A stretch of DNA of 55,170 nt from a virus. Lineage: Duplodnaviria; Caudoviricetes. Both the position numbers and the translations under genes were made by a program. The notes below the pieces were generated by a model, which saw nothing but the letters and a program-made list of their open reading frames with translations, was not told the origin of the DNA and did not search any database. The stretch is taken from IMG/VR virus record IMGVR_UViG_3300025607_000090, positions 1 to 55,170 of that record; one strand, written 5' to 3'. Of the stretch, positions 1-51,140 are shown piece after piece; the first letter of the stretch is position 1; each line of letters starts with the position of its first letter.

Positions 1-1323
1 TTAAGCCGATGATTTATAACGAATTGTTAGCTCGCTACAAAAAACTTGGTCTTGTAATGGTCTCACAGGAACCGAAAACCCTAACATTTGGCTTACCATA
101 GCCGCCATGTTAGGTGTTTCTTCCGACATCCATTTACCATAATGATCTTCTATCATTTTCGTTGTGGTATGACCGAGTTGAGTAGCCAACCATTCTTTTG
201 GAACCCCCTTAGTTAATAACTGACTTGCATATGTATGTCTAGCATTATTAGGCGGTCTATATCGAACACCCGATTCTTTGCATATTGTGTTAAAAAAACG
301 ATCTCTATATTGCATATCAGATGCCATCGGCTTTTGACTACGCGTATTGATCAATATTAACCTTAATTTCTCAGATCTAAATGATTTATTATCTTTTTGT
401 AAAATTGTTATTTCTACTGGTGGCAGCATCGATGTAAGCGCCATTAATTTCATTAGCACCCATCGCGCCGGTTCTAGCAAATCTATTTCACGGTTTCTGC
501 TTTCTTCTTTCGGTGTTTTGTAGCTACCTTGAACATTGGCGCGCCTGACTTTTAATCGCCACCTTTCTTTATCAAAATCTTCCCAAGCAACACCTAGCAA
601 TTCAGAAACACTCAATCCAGTCCAGCAAGCTAGTTCAAAACATAACAATTCGGTAATTCGATCTGTTTGGACGGTAACAAGGCGATAAATCTCATTCTGA
701 GTAAATGGATCGGGAGCATCCTTAACCGTTTTTAAATTATTAATCCTCGCGGTTGGATCCTTATTAATCACTTCATCTTGAAAGGCGTCACCCATCACGC
801 CGCGAACTATTGTCATAATGTCATTGATAGTTTTATTTGAGTAGGCGCAACTGTCTGCGTTATTCCATAATTCGACATTAATCCAGTGCTCTAGATCTGA
901 TTTTTTTATTTCATCTAAATATAAATGGCCCCACTTAGGGCGAACGTGATTAATAACTTTACTGTTGTAGCTGCGATATGTCGCTGGCGCTGTTTTCGAT
1001 TTCTTTACAGCAAGCCACTTATCCAGGCAGTCACTAAATAAGTGTTTACCTGGTCTATCAGAAAATTGCCTCGCAATTTTACTGTTTGGAAAATGAGCCG
1101 CGTAATCAAAAGTTCCTTTATCGATTTCATTAAGTATCGCTGCTCTTTTATTGGCTGCGAACTTTAAATTACTTTTAGATAGCGAGGTACCTTTGAGGGT
1201 CTCGTTGCGCTGGGCGCCGTAGAAGTAGAATCGAATTCTAATTACTTCTCCTCGAACCTCAACGCCCTTTAGCCGGTGATCTTTAATGTACTGCCTGAAC
1301 TCAGCTAGCTTCTTGGTATCCAT
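1..1323 (-). CDS. int: Tyrosine recombinase phage integrase with N-terminal arm-binding domain
   Basis: RHTYAS, LGH and catalytic Y (HYGKW) motifs; N-terminal IRIRFYF...FDYAAHFPNS arm-binding signature; the usual TGLR Arg reads TGLS. Confidence 0.93.
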   Translation of the reverse strand: MDTKKLAEFRQYIKDHRLKGVEVRGEVIRIRFYFYGAQRNETLKGTSLSKSNLKFAANKRAAILNEIDKGTFDYAAHFPNSKIARQFSDRPGKHLFSDCLDKWLAVKKSKTAPATYRSYNSKVINHVRPKWGHLYLDEIKKSDLEHWINVELWNNADSCAYSNKTINDIMTIVRGVMGDAFQDEVINKDPTARINNLKTVKDAPDPFTQNEIYRLVTVQTDRITELLCFELACWTGLSVSELLGVAWEDFDKERWRLKVRRANVQGSYKTPKEESRNREIDLLEPARWVLMKLMALTSMLPPVEITILQKDNKSFRSEKLRLILINTRSQKPMASDMQYRDRFFNTICKESGVRYRPPNNARHTYASQLLTKGVPKEWLATQLGHTTTKMIEDHYGKWMSEETPNMAAMVSQMLGFSVPVRPLQDQVFCSELTIRYKSSA

Positions 1324-5389: not shown

Positions 5390-7255
5390 TTAAGCGGCTT
5401 GAGCTTCGGCCAACCGAGCTTCTAATTGAGCAATTTCACGCTTCGTTAGATCTTCGGCCTGACGAGTATCAGCGTAAGGCAGTGATTTTTTAGCCAGGGC
5501 TATTTGCTCTTTAAGTGACTGAACTTGAGGATTGACAATAGCGACGCGGCTTACTTCAATTTTAAGCTCGTAGCGATTGCCGCTTTCGTCATAAAGAAGT
5601 TCACCAAATGAATTTTCACCGAAGATAGATGACAACTCTTGCATCATTGATACATTGTCAGTGCTAGACGATAGTGATTTAGCTTCAAAAGTCGGTATTG
5701 ATGTTTTCATCGCCGCGAGTGTAGGGGCTATGCTCGCCATCGTTTTAGCGATTGGTTGATTCTGCTTGAGTGTTTCAACCACGGGAGTTTGTTCACGTTG
5801 CTGCGCCGCTTGAGCTTCGTTAGCCAAGCGAACGCGCTCAGCTTCGGCATCGTGTTTAGCCTTTAAATCTGCGTTTATGCGATCCTGTTCAGCTTTTACT
5901 TCTAAATCGGCTTTAACCTTTGCCTTGCGTTCTTCTTCAAGGCGCATTTGTTCACGCTCTTGCTCTAAACGTGCTTTTTCTGCCTCAAGATGAGCATCGA
6001 CTCGCGATTTTACTGTCATGCGGAAGTGATCTGGCTCTTGAATAACAATATGGGCAATATCGTTAAACAAGAATTTGTAATCGGCGGCTATTTCTTCAAC
6101 TACTGCCAAGTTAGTTGAGTATTTGGCAAAGGTTGCATCAGCTTCAATTTTGCATTTTGCTAGATGGTCATTAGCTGCGCTATGGATTGACTCAACCGTG
6201 CGCTTGCCTTTGATTGCGCTGACAAAATCACTATCAACCATTACAGTAACGATACCGTTTAGCTTCTCATTCAGCTCACCAAGGTAGAAGTCAAGTTCAT
6301 TATGTGCGGCAGTAGTGATCTCTGTTTTAACTTCTGTTTTACGCAGCTTAACCGTCTTATCAAGTGACAGACGTTTTTGACGCATTTCTTCTTTTAAAAG
6401 ATCTAACTCAGCGAACAGGGTTTTGATATCAGCGGTGCTATCAAGGGCGCGTTGCTTTACCGCTTCAATTTCTTTTTCTGCTTTGGTACAAAACTTAACG
6501 ATGTTTTCAGCATCGGCAAAGTCTTGATCCGTTTGCAAGTTGGTATTGATGTTCTGGATGAACTCCAAAACGTTTTGCTTGTAAACAACCAAGTTACTGC
6601 TATTTACTTGGCCAGTTAGTTCAACCATCAACGCTGGCAATTCAGTCACATTCGTACCAACAACCTTTTCAACCTTGGCTTTTACTTCGTAATTAGCCAG
6701 GTCTTTTTCAAACTGGGCCCAGCCAGCAATTAAGAATTCACGGCGTTCTGGAATAGATCGGTATTCCATGCGCTCCATGTTTTCTGTAGTACCATTACTG
6801 GTAACAAAGATTGCCTTTTCGGCACCTGAAACTAGTAACTGTTGCTCTAATTGCCAGTAGTAGTGAGGCTCAAGAATAGAGTGGCGAACATTGTCAGCAA
6901 GCGCAGCGTTGTAAAGCTTATGCTCGAAGGCTATATCTTCAAGTAGCGTTAACCCGTCAAAACTTGCCAGTAGTTTGGTATTTTCAAGAATGCCAGTAAC
7001 AGGATATAAATCTTCCCCGATTAGCCCCTCAATAATAGGTCGCGCCATTTCTTCTGTTGCATGACCTTTATCAAAAATAGTCTGCTGATAAGAGCTGACA
7101 GGCTTAACTTCGCCCGTTGCTTTCATGTGAAGCAGTTGATCACGACTCATGTATTTTGAGTCATTCATCATTGCTGGCGCCTCGCTAGCAGTGAAATGTG
7201 TTGCGCGTAGCTCTAACCAGGCTGCGCTTCCTTGGATTACGTTGATAATTTTCAT
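5390..7255 (-). CDS. YqaJ-like viral recombination exonuclease with long coiled-coil C-terminus
   Basis: QGSAAWLELR, TASEA, ASFDG, FEHK and YYWQLEQQL motifs. Confidence 0.92.
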   Translation of the reverse strand: MKIINVIQGSAAWLELRATHFTASEAPAMMNDSKYMSRDQLLHMKATGEVKPVSSYQQTIFDKGHATEEMARPIIEGLIGEDLYPVTGILENTKLLASFDGLTLLEDIAFEHKLYNAALADNVRHSILEPHYYWQLEQQLLVSGAEKAIFVTSNGTTENMERMEYRSIPERREFLIAGWAQFEKDLANYEVKAKVEKVVGTNVTELPALMVELTGQVNSSNLVVYKQNVLEFIQNINTNLQTDQDFADAENIVKFCTKAEKEIEAVKQRALDSTADIKTLFAELDLLKEEMRQKRLSLDKTVKLRKTEVKTEITTAAHNELDFYLGELNEKLNGIVTVMVDSDFVSAIKGKRTVESIHSAANDHLAKCKIEADATFAKYSTNLAVVEEIAADYKFLFNDIAHIVIQEPDHFRMTVKSRVDAHLEAEKARLEQEREQMRLEEERKAKVKADLEVKAEQDRINADLKAKHDAEAERVRLANEAQAAQQREQTPVVETLKQNQPIAKTMASIAPTLAAMKTSIPTFEAKSLSSSTDNVSMMQELSSIFGENSFGELLYDESGNRYELKIEVSRVAIVNPQVQSLKEQIALAKKSLPYADTRQAEDLTKREIAQLEARLAEAQAA

Positions 7256-8094
7256 GCTGCCACTCCTTGAATTATTTGAACTTGCTGATCACTTAATGGA
7301 TATTTACTGCTAGCTTTGGCGATAACATCATTAGCCGTTAGCTTTCCGCTTTGAATGGCACCGGCCCACTTAGGTAAGTTGGCGTCAAATTGATCTTGTG
7401 GGTATTCGTTAACGACTTCAGGTGCTGGATTGATTTCTTTTTCCATAGGAGCGTGGCTATCAGTTTCAAAGTGCTTACCCTCCATTTCGTCAATGGTTGG
7501 TTCGTTGCCGATTTCCGGCCATGCTTTACGTAACGCTTGAGCTTCGGCACATTTTGCGATCTGGCCAAAAGGGCGCTTCTTCCACATTGAATTCGGGGCG
7601 TCTGTTCCTGCTTTTTGGATGGCGTAATTTTCTATCCAGTATTCTTTGGCAACGAACGCAACAATATTTCCACCAACAACTTTGCGAACGGTGTACTTGC
7701 ACCACTCTGGATATTTAATGCTAAACGCTTTGTTATAAGCGTCTGTTCCTTCCATTGTGATGATAGGGCCAAACTCGGGTTCGTCAGCACCAGCGTAGTT
7801 ACCTGAGCGATCAGCTTGAATGCGATACAAGCCAATGCCGGGCATAACAACATCGCGCCATGCCTTTTGATTGGTCTGTGCGTCTTTGACATTCATTGGC
7901 ACTAAATGAACTGGCTTTAACATGACGTCTAGGCCGCGTGCGGCGCAATAATCGATTGCCATAACAACTGAGTCAGGCTTTGCACCAGGATAAATAGTAG
8001 AAAGTAGCGCGTTCCATTTTGGCTCGTCGATACCGCGGCTAACCAAATACGGATTGGCCTGCTCAAATGTTTGAAGTTGAGTTGACTGATTCAT
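7252..8094 (-). CDS. bet: Bet/RecT single-strand annealing protein
   Basis: GIGLYRIQA, WKKRPFGQIAKCAEAQALRKAWP motifs; paired with the exonuclease. Confidence 0.92.
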   Translation of the reverse strand: MNQSTQLQTFEQANPYLVSRGIDEPKWNALLSTIYPGAKPDSVVMAIDYCAARGLDVMLKPVHLVPMNVKDAQTNQKAWRDVVMPGIGLYRIQADRSGNYAGADEPEFGPIITMEGTDAYNKAFSIKYPEWCKYTVRKVVGGNIVAFVAKEYWIENYAIQKAGTDAPNSMWKKRPFGQIAKCAEAQALRKAWPEIGNEPTIDEMEGKHFETDSHAPMEKEINPAPEVVNEYPQDQFDANLPKWAGAIQSGKLTANDVIAKASSKYPLSDQQVQIIQGVAA

Positions 8095-8096
8095 GA

Positions 8097-8468
8097 TTAG
8101 CCCTCCAACTTAACGATGCCGGACCAATCACCACCAACTTCGCCAACGAATGAGACTTCACCGCGATTGTTCATGTTAAATTCAAGATTACAGCGTCTAA
8201 AGTTTGAACCGGTCAAGGAAATTACGTGTTCTGACTCACTATTGATGGCGACATTTGCTACTACGTTAACGCGCTGTAGTGCCGCTTTAGCTTCACACTG
8301 AGCCTTAATAAGTGTTTCTTGCAGGAATTTAACAGACTGATACTTGGTGTTAAAATCGAATAATGCATTATCGAACGCGAAGTAGTTTGCCATGATAGGC
8401 CGACGTACTATTACTAATGGTAGCGATTGTGGTTGTAACTGATGTTGTGACATAATAACTTTCTCCAT
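8097..8468 (-). CDS. Hypothetical phage protein, first long ORF of the PL operon
   Basis: ORF coupled to bet. Confidence 0.55.
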   Translation of the reverse strand: MEKVIMSQHQLQPQSLPLVIVRRPIMANYFAFDNALFDFNTKYQSVKFLQETLIKAQCEAKAALQRVNVVANVAINSESEHVISLTGSNFRRCNLEFNMNNRGEVSFVGEVGGDWSGIVKLEG

Positions 8469-8622
8469 TTAACGCTGCTTGTGCCTTGGACAGTTTGGGC
8501 GGCGTTGGGGTTAGGGCGGCTTAGGTCGCCCGTTTCACTTCTTTTAGTTTTATCTTCTCACCAAACAAACCAACTTGATATTTGTTCCGCTTAGGGACTA
8601 ATTGGGTTGTTTTGATGAATAA

Positions 8623-8674
8623 AGTTTAGAACACTAAACCGCGTTAAGTCAACATAAAGTTTAGTTTATTAAAC
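8623..8674 (-). promoter_or_regulatory. PL promoter with two CI operators (OL)
   Basis: GTTTAG-N4-CTAAAC at 8624-8639 and GTTTAG-N4-TTAAAC at 8659-8674; minus-strand TTGACT-18-TAAACT; the same palindrome occurs between cI and cro. Confidence 0.8.
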
Positions 8675-9030: not shown

Positions 9031-9111
9031 ATCTAACACCTCACTAAGGAGTGTATATTAAGTTGTAGCACTACAATCTGGCTGTTATAGTTTTTTTAGT
9101 TTATGTTATTG
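9031..9111 (-). repeat. attC-like integron cassette site (left array, degenerate)
   Basis: Minus strand: stop TAG, then CAATAAC...ACTAA...CCTTAGTGAGGTGTTAGAT (R' fits GTTRRRY). Confidence 0.55.
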
Positions 9112-9112
9112 T

Positions 9113-9739
9113 CTAACTGAGCTTTTTATGGCACATTTTACACCACTTTGTTAGCCCGTCTGGCTGCTTATCGCTGGGGAAAAAGCTCGATTTGATCCTA
9201 TTGTTTTTGCACTTTGTACAGAACTTGATGTTGCGAGGCTTCTTTTTTCTTGATTCATGACAGCTTTTACACCACTTCGAAAGCCCATCTGGTTGCTTGT
9301 CGCTATTGAAGAACGAGTTATGAGGCTGGGAACGCGAACATTTGTTACATTCCTTATATGACCGACTACTTGATGGAGAAGTTAAACTTGTTTCTTTCGG
9401 CGAGATAGTATGCTCGTGGCTAACTGAAGTTCTAGCTCTAATAGGATGGTTTAATTGTCGTGGACTCGGAATAAGCTCCTTTGCCTGATGCGTTTTAGCC
9501 GACTCAATAGTCGCATGATGACTAGGGGGAACCCAATTGTTAGCCGTCTGAGTTCCATCGCTACAGTAATTAGACTTTGAATATGTTGCTTCATTAATCA
9601 CTTTTCTCTCGATGTAACCTGTTGGAGTGTCAAATCTATCATACCGAACAGTCTTCACTCTTTCTTTCTTTGAGTTCTTATTCTCCGAAAGGTAATACCA
9701 AAAGGCTGCTATCACAGCAAATACAATTAACCATTCCAT
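9113..9739 (-). CDS. Membrane-anchored protein with two CxxC...CxxC zinc-binding repeats (cassette cargo)
   Basis: N-terminal hydrophobic helix; duplicated C.KC...SFF.SDKQPDGL.KWCK.CH unit. Confidence 0.75.
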   Translation of the reverse strand: MEWLIVFAVIAAFWYYLSENKNSKKERVKTVRYDRFDTPTGYIERKVINEATYSKSNYCSDGTQTANNWVPPSHHATIESAKTHQAKELIPSPRQLNHPIRARTSVSHEHTISPKETSLTSPSSSRSYKECNKCSRSQPHNSFFNSDKQPDGLSKWCKSCHESRKKKPRNIKFCTKCKNNRIKSSFFPSDKQPDGLTKWCKMCHKKLS

Positions 9740-10240
9740 ATTTTCTCCTACAGCATCAATGCCATTTCAATCATATCTAAGTTATTCGAATATAACAAAG
9801 TTTACACAGCCATAGAACATTTCGATTATTATTTTTACACAATTTTATGATTAAATCATAAATGGCTACTTAGTTAAGTCAAACCAGACACTTTCAAAAG
9901 AAGATTTCAAATTTAATTTGGTTGCTTTAGAGCTGAAAAAGACAAAGATCTGAGACTCGAAAATACGGTCAATTTTTTTAATACGAATATGAATCGATCA
10001 AACAGATTAGTAATGTATTAGAAGAAGTACGGCGAACTAAACAAATGGCACAAACGGATTAAAACATCCCTAAGTCATTTTTGCGCGATAGCGTGTTAGA
10101 AATTCCAAGCCAAGTCTCATGTTCCGTGAAATGTCCTTTGATCGTGACTGCATAACAAGCTCAGCTCAAGGGCGCTAACCTTAACAAAACAGACTTCTAT
10201 ATAGACAAAGAGGCTTACCTCTTTAGCGGGGGTTTGAAGT

Positions 10241-10345
10241 GGTCAAATGAGCTATGCTTCAATCGTTGATACGATGAAGTACAGCCACTTTGCGCCTAAA
10301 CATTTAGATGATGCGATCAGGCTTAACCAGTTGAACACAAATTAA
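10241..10345 (+). pseudogene. C-terminal remnant of a P2/186-like integrase
   Basis: Translates to GQMSYASIVDTMKYSHFAPKHLDDAIRLNQ, resembling the GQ.SH...GH..I..TMRYAHFAP.HL..A..LNP end of P2/186/HP1 integrases with the middle deleted. Confidence 0.7.
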
Positions 10346-10448
10346 ATAAAAACATGACGTTAGTGTTTTAACGGGGTGATTGTAACCCCATTCGCAGAGG
10401 CTAGTTTTGACTGTTCAATCAGTAGGTTGACTAGATTCGTAGCGTCAG

Positions 10449-10471
10449 AAATGACTACACTTTGACTACAT
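10449..10471 (+). repeat. Direct repeat copy 1, AAATGACTACACTTTGACTACAT (arm-type integrase site-like)
   Basis: Tandem TGACTACA at 11-bp spacing; identical 23-mer at 11988-12010. Confidence 0.8.
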
Positions 10472-10500
10472 GGGTTAGGGCAGCCTGTGGTTGCTATGGT

Positions 10501-10584
10501 ATTTAACGCCCCTCTAATAAGTGAACCAAGGCTGGTATGACAGCCTTGGTGAATCTTAATTTAGAGGCTTGTGATCTGTTGGCT
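10501..10584 (-). repeat. attC-like integron cassette site (left array)
   Basis: Minus strand: R'' AGCCAAC overlapping the stop codon, CCTCTAA/TTAGAGG stem, ACCAAGGCTG/CAGCCTTGGT hairpin, R' GTTAAAT. Confidence 0.8.
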
Positions 10585-10807
10585 AGCCATTGCCGAATTC
10601 ATTACCTACAGCACCACCTGAATTGCCAGCCAAAACGTAAGACATATTGGTTTTGTTACAGTCAATCATTACACGACATGAAGGGCATTGCGCTTTATTG
10701 CCGCTAGTTGTTGCGGATTCAAATGTTGCAGTATCTCTAAAAAATATTGGAGAATTAAATCGATTTCCACATTTACATTTGATAAATGATTCTTTAATTT
10801 GGGTCAT
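10583..10807 (-). CDS. Small zinc-ribbon protein (cassette cargo); start moved to ATG 10807
   Basis: CKCG and CPSC motifs; AAGGA RBS; the longer start would lie inside the upstream attC. Confidence 0.7.
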   Translation of the reverse strand: MTQIKESFIKCKCGNRFNSPIFFRDTATFESATTSGNKAQCPSCRVMIDCNKTNMSYVLAGNSGGAVGNEFGNG

Positions 10808-10837
10808 TTCACTTTTCCTTGTTGATGATAAATTTGT

Positions 10838-10906
10838 TGCCAACGGCTGATTCATGATTAAACACAGCCAACTGTTTTTGTCCTTTTGAAAGACTTATAG
10901 TTAGCT
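10838..10906 (-). repeat. attC-like integron cassette site (left array, internally degenerate)
   Basis: Minus strand: R'' AGCTAAC containing the HNH stop, AAGTCTTTCAAAAGGACAAAAACAGTTGGCT arm, R' GTTGGCA complementary to the next cassette's GCCAAC. Confidence 0.65.
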
Positions 10907-11779
10907 GTAGTGTTCTTCAATACGATTCAAAGACTCTTTTTCAAATTTTAGAGCTTCTTTTCTGTTCCCCAAATATCGAGGTATGCCATCCATTGCCATA
11001 AAGCCACCAATTGGTTTATCGTGGTGACCAATAATTAAACCACCAAAACAATTTGACGCGCTGCAACCACTAATTACAGATGAATTATTTGTAATTAATA
11101 TATTTTTAGGGCGTACTAAAATTTCTACACCATTCCTTAAAAATCGACCTCGATTAATAATAACTTTGTTAGGAGGGCAAAATTTTATTTCAAATAAAAT
11201 TTTTCTATGAGCTTCTCTGACTGTCAATGTCGTGCCAACTAATTGAATATCCCAAGATTCAGTAGAGTAATAAAGTTGATTGTTTTTGATATGAAGAATT
11301 GGAGAATTGAATTCATCAAAAATAACAAGATTCAATAATAAATGCCCATCAGCCAAAATTAGAGCAATCAATGGTGTCCCATCAACACTAATTGGAACCA
11401 TTGCAGTGCCATACCCTTGATCTTGACAAGTAAAGGTATTACTACCAATTTCGACCGTTGCATTGTTTCCTGCGAAATGTAAGTTATATGGTTTAGAAAC
11501 ACCCTCCTTTAGATTATGCGGATTTTCATTAGCAAGGCTTACAACTTCTTTTGGTAATAAACCACCTGTTTTTTCTCTGTGATGTTGGTCGCAGAGTAAT
11601 GTTATTTCATCAGAAACATGTCGTTGAACTTCAGCCCACTCTTCCATGTGCTCATATTCATAAAGCGGTATTCCACAAATAACACAACCAAAACCACATC
11701 GTTGACGGACTTCTCTCTGAATTGGTAATGGAATATTTCTACTATTACATTGTTCTATAACTTTCAAGATAACCTCCAT
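10901..11779 (-). CDS. HNH endonuclease with beta-rich C-terminal domain (cassette cargo)
   Basis: R.IP..I.REVRQRCGFGCVICG...EYEH...ITLLCDQHH; alternative TTG start at 11767 after GGAGG. Confidence 0.88.
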   Translation of the reverse strand: MEVILKVIEQCNSRNIPLPIQREVRQRCGFGCVICGIPLYEYEHMEEWAEVQRHVSDEITLLCDQHHREKTGGLLPKEVVSLANENPHNLKEGVSKPYNLHFAGNNATVEIGSNTFTCQDQGYGTAMVPISVDGTPLIALILADGHLLLNLVIFDEFNSPILHIKNNQLYYSTESWDIQLVGTTLTVREAHRKILFEIKFCPPNKVIINRGRFLRNGVEILVRPKNILITNNSSVISGCSASNCFGGLIIGHHDKPIGGFMAMDGIPRYLGNRKEALKFEKESLNRIEEHYS

Positions 11780-11788
11780 GTGATGAAT

Positions 11789-11820
11789 GCAGCTAATATT
11801 TGTATATCAAACATGCTCAT
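11789..11820 (-). other. attI-like cassette entry site (left array)
   Basis: ATGAGCATGTTTGATATACAAAT-ATTAGCTGC; near-copy of 52088-52118; TTAGCTG complements the HNH cassette's R'' CAGCTAAC. Confidence 0.65.
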
Positions 11821-11987
11821 ACCATAAAAATAATTTATGAAATAATACATCTAAAAATAACGTATTAACTCTATTTCGGTGTGTAGGGTAAGCCGGAGAA
11901 ACGAGCATGCCTACTTTGTCGGCTTGTAACTAATTGACTATACGCAGTTATTTTAAACAGGCAATAAATAACTGAGCATAGCTTTAA

Positions 11988-12010
11988 AAATGACTACACT
12001 TTGACTACAT
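11988..12010 (+). repeat. Direct repeat copy 2, AAATGACTACACTTTGACTACAT
   Basis: Identical to 10449-10471; both copies are followed by TAGGGCA..TGTGGTTG. Confidence 0.8.
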
Positions 12011-12061
12011 AGAACGTAGACATTGTGGCTTATTTTGATAGGGCATGTGGTTGGCTGTTTT

Positions 12062-12074
12062 TAAGTTATTGATT
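12062..12074 (-). promoter_or_regulatory. IHF-binding consensus in the att-like region
   Basis: AATCAATAACTTA matches WATCAANNNNTTR; lies between the arm-type repeat and the tRNA fragment. Confidence 0.6.
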
Positions 12075-12088
12075 TTAGGTGCTCTATA

Positions 12089-12116
12089 GGCGGTTCAAGT
12101 CCCCCCGTCCACACCA
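12089..12116 (+). other. tRNA 3'-end fragment (tRNA-Leu-like att core), not a full tRNA
   Basis: GGCGG-TTCAAGT-CCCCC T-arm (one mismatch), 7-nt acceptor strand, ACCA end; no D or anticodon arm upstream. Confidence 0.75.
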
Positions 12117-12122
12117 AAATTA

Positions 12123-12155
12123 TAAAGCCCGTAACTCATTGAGTTACGGGCTTTT
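12123..12155. terminator. Bidirectional rho-independent terminator downstream of cI
   Basis: AAAGCCCGTAACTC-ATT-GAGTTACGGGCTTT perfect stem. Confidence 0.85.
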
Positions 12156-12222: not shown

Positions 12223-12873
12223 CTATTCCTGCATAAATGCGCCGATAACCAAGCCACAAACCTGGACCCCATCTTCGGGCTTTATTAGTTCATGCCTGTC
12301 ATTTAACGGTTTCAGGTATTGCTGGCCGCTTTCGTCTTCCATTAACTGCTTAAAAGTGCAGGCGCTACCAAGGCGGGCAACCACCCGCTGACCAGGCATT
12401 GCGCTTCGATCTGGATCTACAAAAATTATGGTGCCTTCTGGATAACTGCGCATACCTGGGAACGCTGCGGTCATCGAGTCGCCTTTAACTTGCAGCGCAT
12501 AAGTACGCGGACCGGCATTTCTTACCGGGCAGGGATAGTACTCGGTAGATTCATCCAACGGTGCTAATTGGCCTGCTTCACAAAAAGCACCGGCCTGAAT
12601 CCAACTGATTAAGGGAACTGGCTTAACATGAGGCACTGATATTGTATTTTCACTATCCACAGCCCTTGTTGGAGAGCCAGTGCCATAAAGCAACCAATCA
12701 GGATCAACGCCTAATACTTTACAAAGTAATATTAAATTTTTACCGCTAGGGTTTGCTGTGCCTTTTCTCCACTGGCTAATCGTACCTTTTGAGATACCTG
12801 TTTTATTTATAACATCAACGGAGCGGAGCTTTAACTCGCTCATTCTTTTAATTATGCGATCTGAAATATTCAT
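12223..12873 (-). CDS. cI: CI-like repressor (HTH plus S24 autopeptidase)
   Basis: HTH (GISKGTISQW), VPLISWIQAG cleavage site, GDSM and TFK catalytic dyad; ATG 12873 preferred over TTG 12882. Confidence 0.95.
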   Translation of the reverse strand: MNISDRIIKRMSELKLRSVDVINKTGISKGTISQWRKGTANPSGKNLILLCKVLGVDPDWLLYGTGSPTRAVDSENTISVPHVKPVPLISWIQAGAFCEAGQLAPLDESTEYYPCPVRNAGPRTYALQVKGDSMTAAFPGMRSYPEGTIIFVDPDRSAMPGQRVVARLGSACTFKQLMEDESGQQYLKPLNDRHELIKPEDGVQVCGLVIGAFMQE

Positions 12874-12874
12874 A

Positions 12875-12937
12875 GTTAACAATGCTAAACCTTTTTTGGT
12901 TTATTGTTATGGACTTATTGAGTTTAGACTGCTAAAC
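12875..12937. promoter_or_regulatory. OR operator region (three operators)
   Basis: GTTTAG-ACTG-CTAAAC (12922-12937), GTTAAC-AATG-CTAAAC (12875-12890), degenerate copy at 12899-12914. Confidence 0.8.
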
Positions 12938-12971: not shown

Positions 12972-13166
12972 ATGAACAAGGTTGACGCTATACAACATTT
13001 TGGAACGCAGCAGAATTTAGCTAGAGCACTAGGGATAACAAAAAGCTCGATCTCCCAATGGGGCGACTCCATCCCAATGCGTCGCGCCTATGAATTGGAA
13101 CGGATCACTAATGGTGCCCTAAAGGCAATTTCACCAAGCGGTGACAAAAGACAGAAAGCCGCATAA
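12972..13166 (+). CDS. cro: Cro-like repressor
   Basis: FGTQQNLARALGITKSSISQWG HTH, divergent from cI. Confidence 0.92.
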   Translation: MNKVDAIQHFGTQQNLARALGITKSSISQWGDSIPMRRAYELERITNGALKAISPSGDKRQKAA

Positions 13167-49162: not shown

Positions 49163-49582
49163 ATGATTTCAATATCTCAGAAAATAAGAACATTGTTTGA
49201 ATTAGGCGGGGAGAAAATTGATCTTCCTTACTTTTCTGGGTTTCCAAGAAATGCGTGTGAGGGAGCATCACTATTTCTTGGCGCTACTCTAAAAGAAATA
49301 TTTCCAATGTCTCATATAGAGTATCTGAAAGGATATGATGAAAACGGGGCTATTCATTTTTGGCTAGAAGTTGACGCTAAGGTTTTCGATATCACAGCGG
49401 ATCAGTTTCCTGAAATACCAGAACCACTTTTTGGAGTTGCTCATCAACCTTTAGCTGAAATTTATCGTGATATTGAAAGGAAAGAAATAACTGATGCGCT
49501 CAGAGAATCTGATGTGACAACAGAAACATATAAACATTCGCTAATGATGGACATTAGGCATTATTTAAGCATAAACGTATAA
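49163..49582 (+). CDS. Cys-His-Asp (transglutaminase/papain-like) protein (cassette cargo)
   Basis: FPRNAC, HFWLE and DITADQF motifs. Confidence 0.75.
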   Translation: MISISQKIRTLFELGGEKIDLPYFSGFPRNACEGASLFLGATLKEIFPMSHIEYLKGYDENGAIHFWLEVDAKVFDITADQFPEIPEPLFGVAHQPLAEIYRDIERKEITDALRESDVTTETYKHSLMMDIRHYLSINV

Positions 49583-49623
49583 ACAAAAACCTCAATCGTA
49601 CGGCTTTTAGGTTGGTGTTAGGT
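49577..49623 (+). repeat. attC-like site 1 (very short)
   Basis: GTATAAAC-AAA-AACCTCAA...ACGGCT..TTAGGTT-GGT-GTTAGGT; stop codon inside R''. Confidence 0.75.
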
Positions 49624-49657
49624 TATTACCAGATTAATTCACTTTAAGGGGAAATAC

Positions 49658-50116: not shown

Positions 50117-50119
50117 ATA

Positions 50120-50221
50120 ACCTAGCAAGAACCTAAACCAGACGGCTAGAACTATCACACTTTTAGCAACAAAGACGCAAAAAACTGCGCCAGCACGTCG
50201 CAGGTTAGGTTGGCGTTGCGG
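50120..50221 (+). repeat. attC-like site 2
   Basis: Near-copy of 50994-51094; AACCT/AGGTT stem; GACGCAAAAAACTGCGCCA shared. Confidence 0.85.
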
Positions 50222-50399
50222 CTGGATAATTTATAGTTTTGTTTAAAACAGGTAAAAAACGAGCTCCTGTAACGCAAAATAAGCGACGCACTCAGTGTGG
50301 GTAATACATTTTATACCCTTATTTTGACGTGTTTTTGTAATTTTTTATAAATTCTACAGCCTTATAGTTAGCTGCCAATGTTTCAGCAGTTCACTACTA

Positions 50400-50923: not shown

Positions 50924-50993
50924 GAAATCAGATTGCTGTCAAATTATATTTAACAATCAGTTGGTCAGCGAATTTATTCATGAGAGAGTAAGC

Positions 50994-51094
50994 AGCTAAC
51001 AAGCACCTCAACTAGACGGCTAAAGCTGTCACATTTTTTAGCAAAGAGACGCAAAAAACTGCGCCAACACGCCGCGGTTAGGTGGGTGTTAAGC
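50994..51094 (+). repeat. attC-like site 3 (best preserved)
   Basis: R'' AGCTAAC, CACCTCAAC/GTTAGGTG L-box stem with an extra C, central hairpin, R' GTTAAGC. Confidence 0.9.
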
Positions 51095-51140
51095 ATTCTA
51101 CGCTTGTTTCAACAAACGTAATTTAAATGGGAATTGAGTA

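Follow-up and report, generated by a model that had tools for sequence, protein, structure and literature searches.

A two-gene unit of probable integron-cassette origin beside the repressor gene of a marine prophage

In lambda, the interval between the left promoter (PL) and the repressor gene cI is occupied by rexAB, and exclusion genes that are expressed in the lysogen adjoin the repressor gene. The IMG/VR provirus record IMGVR_UViG_3300025607_000090, which was analysed over its full 55,170 bp (the window) and represents a marine prophage with a gene content of lambdoid type, has a 3.5-kb slot between its probable PL and cI with three minus-strand genes inside: one for an HNH (His-Me finger)-like protein, one for a small zinc-ribbon protein and a third for a protein with a duplicated zinc module. 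Where did these genes come from? A first-pass annotation, which gave the positions of the three open reading frames (ORFs) as we find them, took them for an array of three integron cassettes with its own attI site. Our analyses favor, at a probability of roughly two in three, a fused two-gene cassette of integron origin that extends from 11796 to 10501 (minus strand, ~1.3 kb) in the prophage cI-PL slot. The integron-cassette origin of the first two genes and their location inside the prophage are thus retained from the earlier description, while the three-cassette array and the attI site are abandoned.

Recombination sites and boundaries of the two-gene unit

The 48 nt that follow the HNH stop codon (10866-10913) recur elsewhere in the genome of Colwellia marinimaniae; they are part of a repeat that has at least 32 matches there, spread over many small contigs. 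Sixteen distinct full copies of this repeat were extracted, and 15 of them were aligned (alignment A6) to yield a covariance model, R2, the structure of which comprises four helices corresponding to the R boxes, the L boxes, an A/T helix and GTTGGYT/ARCCAAC. This structure is paired in 83% of the alignment cells, a value reached by none of 500 shuffles, and its L-box helix exhibits changes on both sides in four of seven pairs. A first, general attC model (R1) had been built from 12 attCs of mostly GC-rich lineages; it finds Vibrio and Photobacterium sites at 15-25 bits. When R2 was scanned over the whole window with filters off, its top match was the site located immediately after the zinc-ribbon gene (Table 1), which reads R'' AGATCAC, spacer AAG, L'' CCTCTAA, a 10-bp apical stem, L' TTAGAGG, spacer GGC and R' GTTAAAT (10507-10501). 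The next matches fell on repeats near the right end of the window (19.1, 16.0 and 14.0 bits), and the remaining noise did not exceed 12.4 bits. As negative controls, 92 kb of DNA around distant cI relatives yielded a maximum of 15.5 bits, and 80 kb around zinc-ribbon and HNH homologues in viral contigs a maximum of 16.4 bits, the latter for a plain hairpin. Conversely, true attCs upon which R2 had not been trained, from arrays of Vibrio, Photobacterium, Burkholderiales, Marinobacter, Pseudomonas, Salinisphaera and Halomonas, scored 14-29 bits with 32 of 32 matches on the array strand, and the attC of the Colwellia HNH copy, also outside the training set, scored 71.4 bits.

Since these controls hold, the best test that we were able to build identifies the site after the zinc-ribbon gene as an attC. 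The attC that had been proposed at 10501-10584 is borne out both by a strong hairpin (dG -15.9, with none of 200 shuffles reaching its stability) and by a top R2 match confined to the minus strand, and the score exceeds what a mere hairpin collects (31.7 bits versus at most 16.4 bits in 172 kb of phage DNA). Its attC architecture lies 3' of the zinc-ribbon gene, and thereby of the whole fused unit, on the strand of the gene. Considered as a terminator, the hairpin has a strong stem, but its tail, TTCACTTATT, falls below the T-run rule of our terminator scan; the terminal attC may nonetheless double as a terminator. Folding by itself is a poor test of attC identity, as two true attCs taken from arrays fold at z-scores of only -1.3 and -1.6. 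An energy-ranked search for RYYYAAC...GTTRRRY pairs was likewise tried and dropped because it did not discriminate.

The middle site, between the HNH and zinc-ribbon genes, presents a different picture. The attC that the first-pass annotation placed at 10838-10906 is indeed homologous to the Colwellia attC family, namely to the left half of those sites, but it folds no better than its shuffled versions (z -0.28), which says little given the above, and R2 assigns the HNH gene no attC of its own beyond a vestige (10835-10905; 10.4 bits, E 5.7). The parts that persist are the inverse core (AGCTAAC), the left arm and GTTGGCT, and homology to the Colwellia repeat is limited to 10866-10913. Six bases interrupt AGCC..AAC, and the ribosome-binding region of the zinc-ribbon gene now stands in place of the right arm and R'. 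With this site decayed, the two genes are no longer separable cassettes and constitute a single unit, for which the terminal site is the only good one. The term CALIN (cluster of attC sites lacking integron integrases) is applied to two or more attC sites without an integrase, according to the threshold in IntegronFinder usage; as one site passes and the other is a vestige, the slot is more aptly described as holding a lone attC with no integrase.

The boundary motifs of a cassette are also retained in the window. DNA homology to the Colwellia HNH copy is limited to 11799-10866: it sets in three bases ahead of TTAGCTG, at the cassette start, and breaks off halfway through the attC that follows the HNH stop codon. 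The complementary ends that had been noticed previously are present as well: minus-strand TTAGCTG (11796-11790) pairs with CAGCTAAC (10907-10900), and GTTGGCT (10872-10866) with AGCCAAC (10584-10578). TTAGCTG and CAGCTAA are complementary and in homologous position, but an A precedes the former and a C stands at the third R of the TTRRRY motif; moreover, CAGCTAA is over-represented across the window (21 copies versus 9.2 expected). Three of the seven window copies of AGCCAAC/GTTGGCT fall within 10578-12056, a clustering that arises because this pair forms the inner stem of the Colwellia attC family. The G+C content of the HNH and zinc-ribbon genes (0.31-0.37) is below that of the flanking phage genes (0.42-0.50).

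For the zinc-ribbon gene itself, a start at 10807 is the more likely one, since its homologues are called at 74-76 aa, and a 93-nt spacer then separates it from the HNH gene. Its closest homologues are 82-85% identical, and no family for the protein was found in Pfam, PHROGs, NCBIfam or PADLOC. We also considered the HNH and zinc-ribbon genes as a conserved two-gene system and rejected this, as they did not co-occur in any homologous locus examined.

The HNH gene family is an integron cassette in other genomes

A search with the HNH protein recovered 905 homologues at E<1e-5. The closest are 93-94% identical, and homologues at 73-94% identity are found in Colwellia, Vibrio, Shewanella, Acinetobacter, Pseudomonas, Halomonas, Burkholderiales, Nitrospirales and Rubrobacteraceae. 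Such identities across such distant lineages fit the spread of a highly mobile gene. In Vibrio hibernica, the contig that carries the gene also encodes an integron integrase (IntI) 7.3 kb away, which passes the TIGR02249 cut-off at 466 bits; the two loci share 197 nt, the HNH gene is surrounded by 16 copies of a 100-nt attC repeat, and its own attC scores 24.1 bits with R2. IntI was detected above the TIGR02249 cut-off in four of the five host genomes tested, including Colwellia marinimaniae. When 52 homologous HNH loci (43 from species genomes and nine from IMG/VR contigs) were scored by script for cassette ends, a GTTRRRY-like core, mostly GTTAGCT, GTTAGCC or GTTAGTT, was located at most 25 nt from the projected HNH start in 18 of them, and an inverse core overlapped the HNH stop in 13; in six loci, the start and stop cores were complementary at seven of seven positions. 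Thus, in other genomes the HNH family occurs as a true integron cassette, and the finding that would have spoken against the first-pass annotation, namely that homologues never occur in attC-bounded cassettes, was not obtained for this gene, given the Vibrio hibernica array and the ends in 18 of 52 loci.

Among genomic copies, the closest one (92% aa identity) lies in Colwellia marinimaniae (contig L024, 1429-2424), with epmA on one side and a two-gene module that stands upstream of the cysHIJ genes on the other, a place that is neither an integron nor a prophage. This HNH cassette stands alone there, with an intact attC (71.4 bits) and a T instead of a G before TTAGCTG, and is thus a second lone cassette at a non-integron site. 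Among the viral loci, the gene adjoins integrases, lysis genes or prophage ends.

The protein is probably best described as HNH-like. An invariant CxxxCxxC...H...CxxHH motif spans residues 28-67 in the alignment of the family, with C28, C32, C35, H44, H54, C63, H66 and H67 as its invariant residues, and fits the His-Me finger pattern. Neighboring protein clusters in Atlas carry HNH names, whereas Pfam and NCBIfam yielded no match to the protein. Together with the weak matches to HNH PHROGs, the motif suggests a His-Me finger-like nuclease. In an AlphaFold2 model, the N-terminal part has a predicted local distance difference test score below 50, while the C-terminal 160 residues form a confident, beta-rich domain; searches of this domain against the Protein Data Bank gave no match (Foldseek best E 0.07, VIA-align best Z 4.2), a result that makes no statement on the novelty of the fold. 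NCBI labels many family members as "cell division protein" and some JGI records as "trigger factor"; neither label is backed by a domain match, and both look like propagated misannotation.

The repressor-adjacent slot and its surroundings

The features of the slot and of the surrounding prophage are compiled in Table 1. Core phage genes flank the unit on both sides (cI at 12223-12882, recT and the RecE-like gene at 5390-8094), so the contention that it lies inside the prophage stands. Two copies of the word TGCTAAACYTTTT... are present in the cI-cro spacer, and its core is found again, inverted, at 8619-8674. From these shared repeats and a promoter-like site directed toward orf123, 8619-8674 is the probable left operator and PL of the prophage, which places the HNH and zinc-ribbon genes between PL and cI and, as had been proposed, in a position like that of lambda rexAB.

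Table 1. Features of the window in the slot between PL and cI and in the neighboring prophage DNA
Feature	Position	Strand	Evidence or remark
Integrase gene	1-1323	minus	sole whole tyrosine recombinase in the record
SSB, RdgC and Dam genes	between the integrase gene (1-1323) and the RecE-like gene	minus	
RecE-like gene	5390-7255	minus	
recT	7252-8094	minus	
orf123	8097-8468	minus	
Operator-like repeats with promoter-like site (8652-8623), left slot border	8619-8674		ahead of orf123-recT-recE; repeat D11, promoter scan, shared words
Third gene, 208 aa, N-terminal hydrophobic stretch, duplicated CxxC zinc module	9113-9739	minus	phrog_6762, 8e-24
Promoter-like site for third gene	9882-9855	minus	promoter scan
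Remnant of P2-type tyrosine integrase C-terminus, open for 35 codons	10238-10342	plus	tblastn: 313 phage records, best E 1e-5, integrase-annotated
Direct repeat, copy B, 32 nt	10440-10471		repeat search, alignment
Well-formed attC	10498-10584	minus	top R2 match of the window (10498-10579), 31.7 bits, E 2.9e-5; fold z -5.6
Zinc-ribbon gene, 74 aa, two CxxC pairs	10583-10807	minus	9 homologues called at 74-76 aa
Vestigial attC of HNH cassette	10835-10906	minus	R2 10.4 bits versus 71.4 for the orthologous Colwellia site
HNH (His-Me finger)-like gene, 292 aa	10901-11779	minus	phrog_6544, 1.4e-45; HNH phrogs, 1e-6
Cassette 5' boundary, TTAGCTG	11790-11796	minus	Colwellia DNA homology starts ~11799; same place as the core in 18/52 loci
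Promoter-like site TTGCCT-16-TATAGT, upstream of HNH gene	11937-11964	minus	consensus match only, 9/12 positions
Direct repeat, copy A, 32 nt	11979-12010		91% to copy B; repeat search, alignment
tRNA-Leu 3'-end-like fragment (T arm and acceptor, ends CCA)	12089-12116	plus	24/28 identical to Colwellia marinimaniae tRNA-Leu(GAG)
Terminator-like hairpin right after cI	12124-12154	minus	14-bp stem, then T run; perfect 15-nt inverted repeat I7
cI-type repressor gene, right slot border	12223-12882	minus	Peptidase_S24 3.5e-20, HTH_3 2.7e-10 (Pfam); phrog_4 repressor, 1.9e-45
Cro gene	12972-13166	plus	replication, packaging and tail genes downstream

The third gene does not share the history of the other two. 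Neither R1 nor R2 finds an attC for it, ~760 bp that lack an open frame and carry a decayed P2-type integrase gene separate it from the unit, and it is a member of the phage family phrog_6762, with a promoter-like site of its own; we therefore no longer regard it as a cassette. The weaker attC that had been assigned to it at 9031-9111 (z -0.51) has no minus-strand R2 match, and its R1 match of 8.8 bits is on the wrong strand. An internal 60-nt repeat of the gene (9125-9184 and 9254-9313, 77% identical) corresponds to the duplicated CxxC...WCKxCH zinc module, and the hydrophobic N-terminal stretch suggests that the protein may be membrane-anchored. The attI-like site that had been marked at 11789-11820 fared no better, with a z-score of -0.57, no R1 or R2 match and no resemblance to the DNA next to intI in Colwellia, leaving TTAGCTG as its only meaningful part; it should be added that no general model of attI sites exists. 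No match to the integron integrase model TIGR02249 was found in the record.

Other elements of the slot hint at a further recombination system. The frames upstream of the P2-type integrase remnant (~9980-10240) are broken in six-frame reading, and the decayed gene was matched neither with the integrase of the window (1-1323) as a probe nor by Pfam searches of its fragments. It may be noted that this remnant lies in the middle of the prophage and is unrelated to the integrase at 1-1323. The tRNA-Leu-like fragment beside the cI terminator is possibly a relic attachment core. The two copies of the 32-nt repeat bracket the two cassette genes, and each contains two TGACTACAY words 11 nt (one helical turn) apart; a fifth such word occurs at 11935-11943. 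These look like arm-type sites of a recombinase or binding sites of a regulator. There is also a 15-nt inverted repeat (10858-10872 and 12050-12064), and the 32-nt repeats, the inverted repeat, the decayed P2-type integrase and the tRNA-Leu-like fragment together look like a wrecked int-attP module. Elsewhere, the best R1 match of the window (79-115; 14.5 bits, E 0.78) is non-significant and may belong to the phage attachment region.

At the opposite end of the window, repeats of ~90-105 nt follow successive small ORFs between 49500 and 54100, at 49579, 50121, 50995, 51877 and 53929. Two of them look complete (50118-50224 and 50992-51097, which are the 19.1- and 16.0-bit matches of R2) and three look truncated, with 49576-49626 accounting for the 14.0-bit match. 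They probably represent a cassette array of the host chromosome, situated at the right end of the prophage or beyond it, after the gene for a 1986-aa tail protein, in which case the prophage adjoins or lies within an integron array. The attC type of the slot differs from this right-hand family, as had been suggested, scoring 31.7 versus 14-19 bits with the Colwellia model.

The searches recovered no close relative of the prophage: its cI relatives are at most 46% identical, orf123 yielded none, and an exact-word scan for the 32-nt repeat was negative. The slot interval had no match among phage records by megablast and blastn. No RNA run was among the sequencing runs listed for the searched words; three metagenome runs contain 5% of them, which does not bear on expression. 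Over the window, Rfam at gathering thresholds gave nothing, ARAGORN found no tRNA and PADLOC returned no meaningful match.

Origin of the unit and its place among known systems

Several inferences can be made regarding the arrival of the unit. A host integron integrase acting in trans would have inserted a circular two-gene cassette at a non-canonical (secondary) site of the prophage, as suggested by the junctions A|TTAGCTG and G|TTAAAT, which sit on cassette boundaries in flanks that are not attC-like. The same hotspot of recombination would also account for several other pieces as separate debris, namely the third gene, the remains of the P2-type integrase gene, the tRNA-Leu-like fragment and both 32-nt repeats. 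It is also conceivable, albeit rather unlikely in our estimation, that the cassettes were captured by illegitimate recombination or by imprecise excision of a prophage from a host chromosomal integron. Vibrio anguillarum prophages are reported to excise with pieces of a chromosomal integron (PMC9892861), and the attC-like repeats at the right end of the record (49.5-54 kb) would put this prophage beside or within a host array; yet the slot attC is of a type unlike that adjacent array (31.7 versus 14-19 bits), and the unit is found in the middle of the prophage rather than at its end. Similarly, an A rather than a G at the junction and the 32-nt direct repeats bracketing the unit would suit such a capture, whereas the coincidence of both junctions with cassette boundaries and the lack of a neighboring attC fragment on the left flank would not. 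A working three-cassette array with its own attI, gaining and losing cassettes in place, would account for three co-oriented small genes, one good attC and a TTAGCTG junction at the head. This proposal is largely refuted and now seems highly improbable, as the record has no integron integrase, the supposed attI has neither structure, model match nor Colwellia likeness, the middle attC is decayed and the third gene lies beyond a decayed integrase gene without an attC.

A more skeptical view would hold that the genes are prophage morons of the ordinary, stand-alone kind, which have a promoter and a terminator hairpin of their own, and that the complementary words and the model score are by-products of the hairpin and of gene ancestry. 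Plain hairpins do collect up to 16.4 bits with R2, while R1 is blank, and the hairpin at 10501-10584 has an apical stem of 10 bp, rich in G+C, and a T-rich tail behind it. Nevertheless, the strand-specific 31.7 bits are roughly double the highest score that 172 kb of control phage DNA yields, the R2 match extends beyond the stem over the spacers AAG and GGC and the R' box GTTAAAT, the terminator pattern scan did not call the hairpin, and TTAGCTG and AGCTAAC stand exactly where the array copies end. We accordingly consider the moron explanation improbable, even though it gains from the HNH gene being without cassette ends in all nine IMG/VR loci. That observation, which extends to the Acinetobacter loci, implies that a cassette past is not obligatory for this gene, and it is among several that weigh against an integron origin of the unit. 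The base preceding TTAGCTG is A in the window and T in Colwellia, whereas the canonical IntI crossover expects G. The R'' box of the terminal attC has CAC in place of AAC, and AGCCAAC, the complement of GTTGGCT, is 8 nt out of register. Zinc-ribbon homologues were viewed in three contexts (two GC-rich phages and one chromosome fragment), none of which had an attC or an array, such that the expectation of integron homologues for the cargo was realized for the HNH gene in Vibrio hibernica but for the zinc-ribbon gene in 0/3 contexts. As for the models, R2 was trained on a single genome with an effective sequence number of 1.72, and its E-values are rough. R1, for its part, gave 5.4 bits for the middle site, no match for the terminal site and nothing significant in the window; as it missed the right-hand repeats too, it is insensitive for this lineage and was set aside rather than counted as evidence against.

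The expression of the unit can be envisaged in outline. Co-transcription with cI is doubtful, because a terminator separates the slot genes from cI; for the same reason, the unit would be transcribed in the lysogen from a promoter in the upstream phage DNA, and its transcript would be ended by the attC hairpin. The HNH nuclease may serve as an exclusion or defence gene expressed in the lysogen, and the zinc-ribbon gene may have such a function as well, by analogy with the position and with anti-phage reports on integron cassettes. For instance, sedentary chromosomal-integron cassettes have been described as encoding anti-phage systems, among which Sirona and Nemetona are HNH-like and consist of a single gene (Darracq et al., bioRxiv 10.1101/2024.07.02.601686). 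Compared by description only, these share with the present gene a single-gene His-Me finger protein, residence in Vibrio chromosomal-integron cassettes, occurrence in many genera and copies in prophages.

Integron parts in phages have already been published. A survey of 10,705 phage genomes reported three complete integrons, one In0 and 17 CALINs (Qi et al. 2023, PMC9892861), and the CALINs and SALINs (single attC sites lacking integron integrases) described there have in common with the present unit attC cassettes without an integrase, attC types of the host lineage and small genes of unknown function. The present case differs in its cI-PL slot, its single intact attC and its two fused genes, and the survey is not known to name a preferred position. 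What is added here is the repressor-adjacent position and a widely travelled HNH gene. Lone cassettes outside integrons also have precedents, such as a single dfrA14 cassette inside strA (PMC11213556), and a consensus of GWTMW/GNT has been given for secondary sites (PMC4618277). As in dfrA14/strA, a cassette with its own attC lies outside an integron and has its junctions on cassette boundaries; here, the junction is A|TT rather than G|TT, and the target is a prophage instead of a plasmid resistance locus.

The comparison with rexAB is one of position. Like rexAB, the unit lies directly downstream of cI, on the same strand and within the cI-PL interval, in this case with a G+C content below that of the neighboring phage genes. 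In sequence, the unit is unrelated to RexA and RexB (no PADLOC match), and unlike rexAB it has a recognizable origin in the integron pool. One might go further and suppose that the repressor-adjacent slot is fed directly from the cassette pool. A host IntI, responding to the SOS signal that also induces the prophage, would insert circular cassettes at non-canonical prophage sites, and the intact terminal attC would let the fused cassette be excised anew and passed on to the integron of a further host, so that the phage would carry cassettes in both directions between integron defence "biobanks" and prophage morons; we regard this extension as rather unlikely.

For the search for such elements, our results indicate that attC models must match the host lineage, as the general model R1 missed every site of the window. 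The favored reading also predicts that one defined 85-nt site would be recombined by an integron integrase. Morons beside a repressor gene are usually without a traceable origin, whereas here the origin is legible from a cassette gene family and an attC at the end of the unit. The finding thereby links chromosomal integrons, as stores of small and possibly defensive genes, with the accessory slots of prophages and with the wide horizontal spread of one HNH-like protein.

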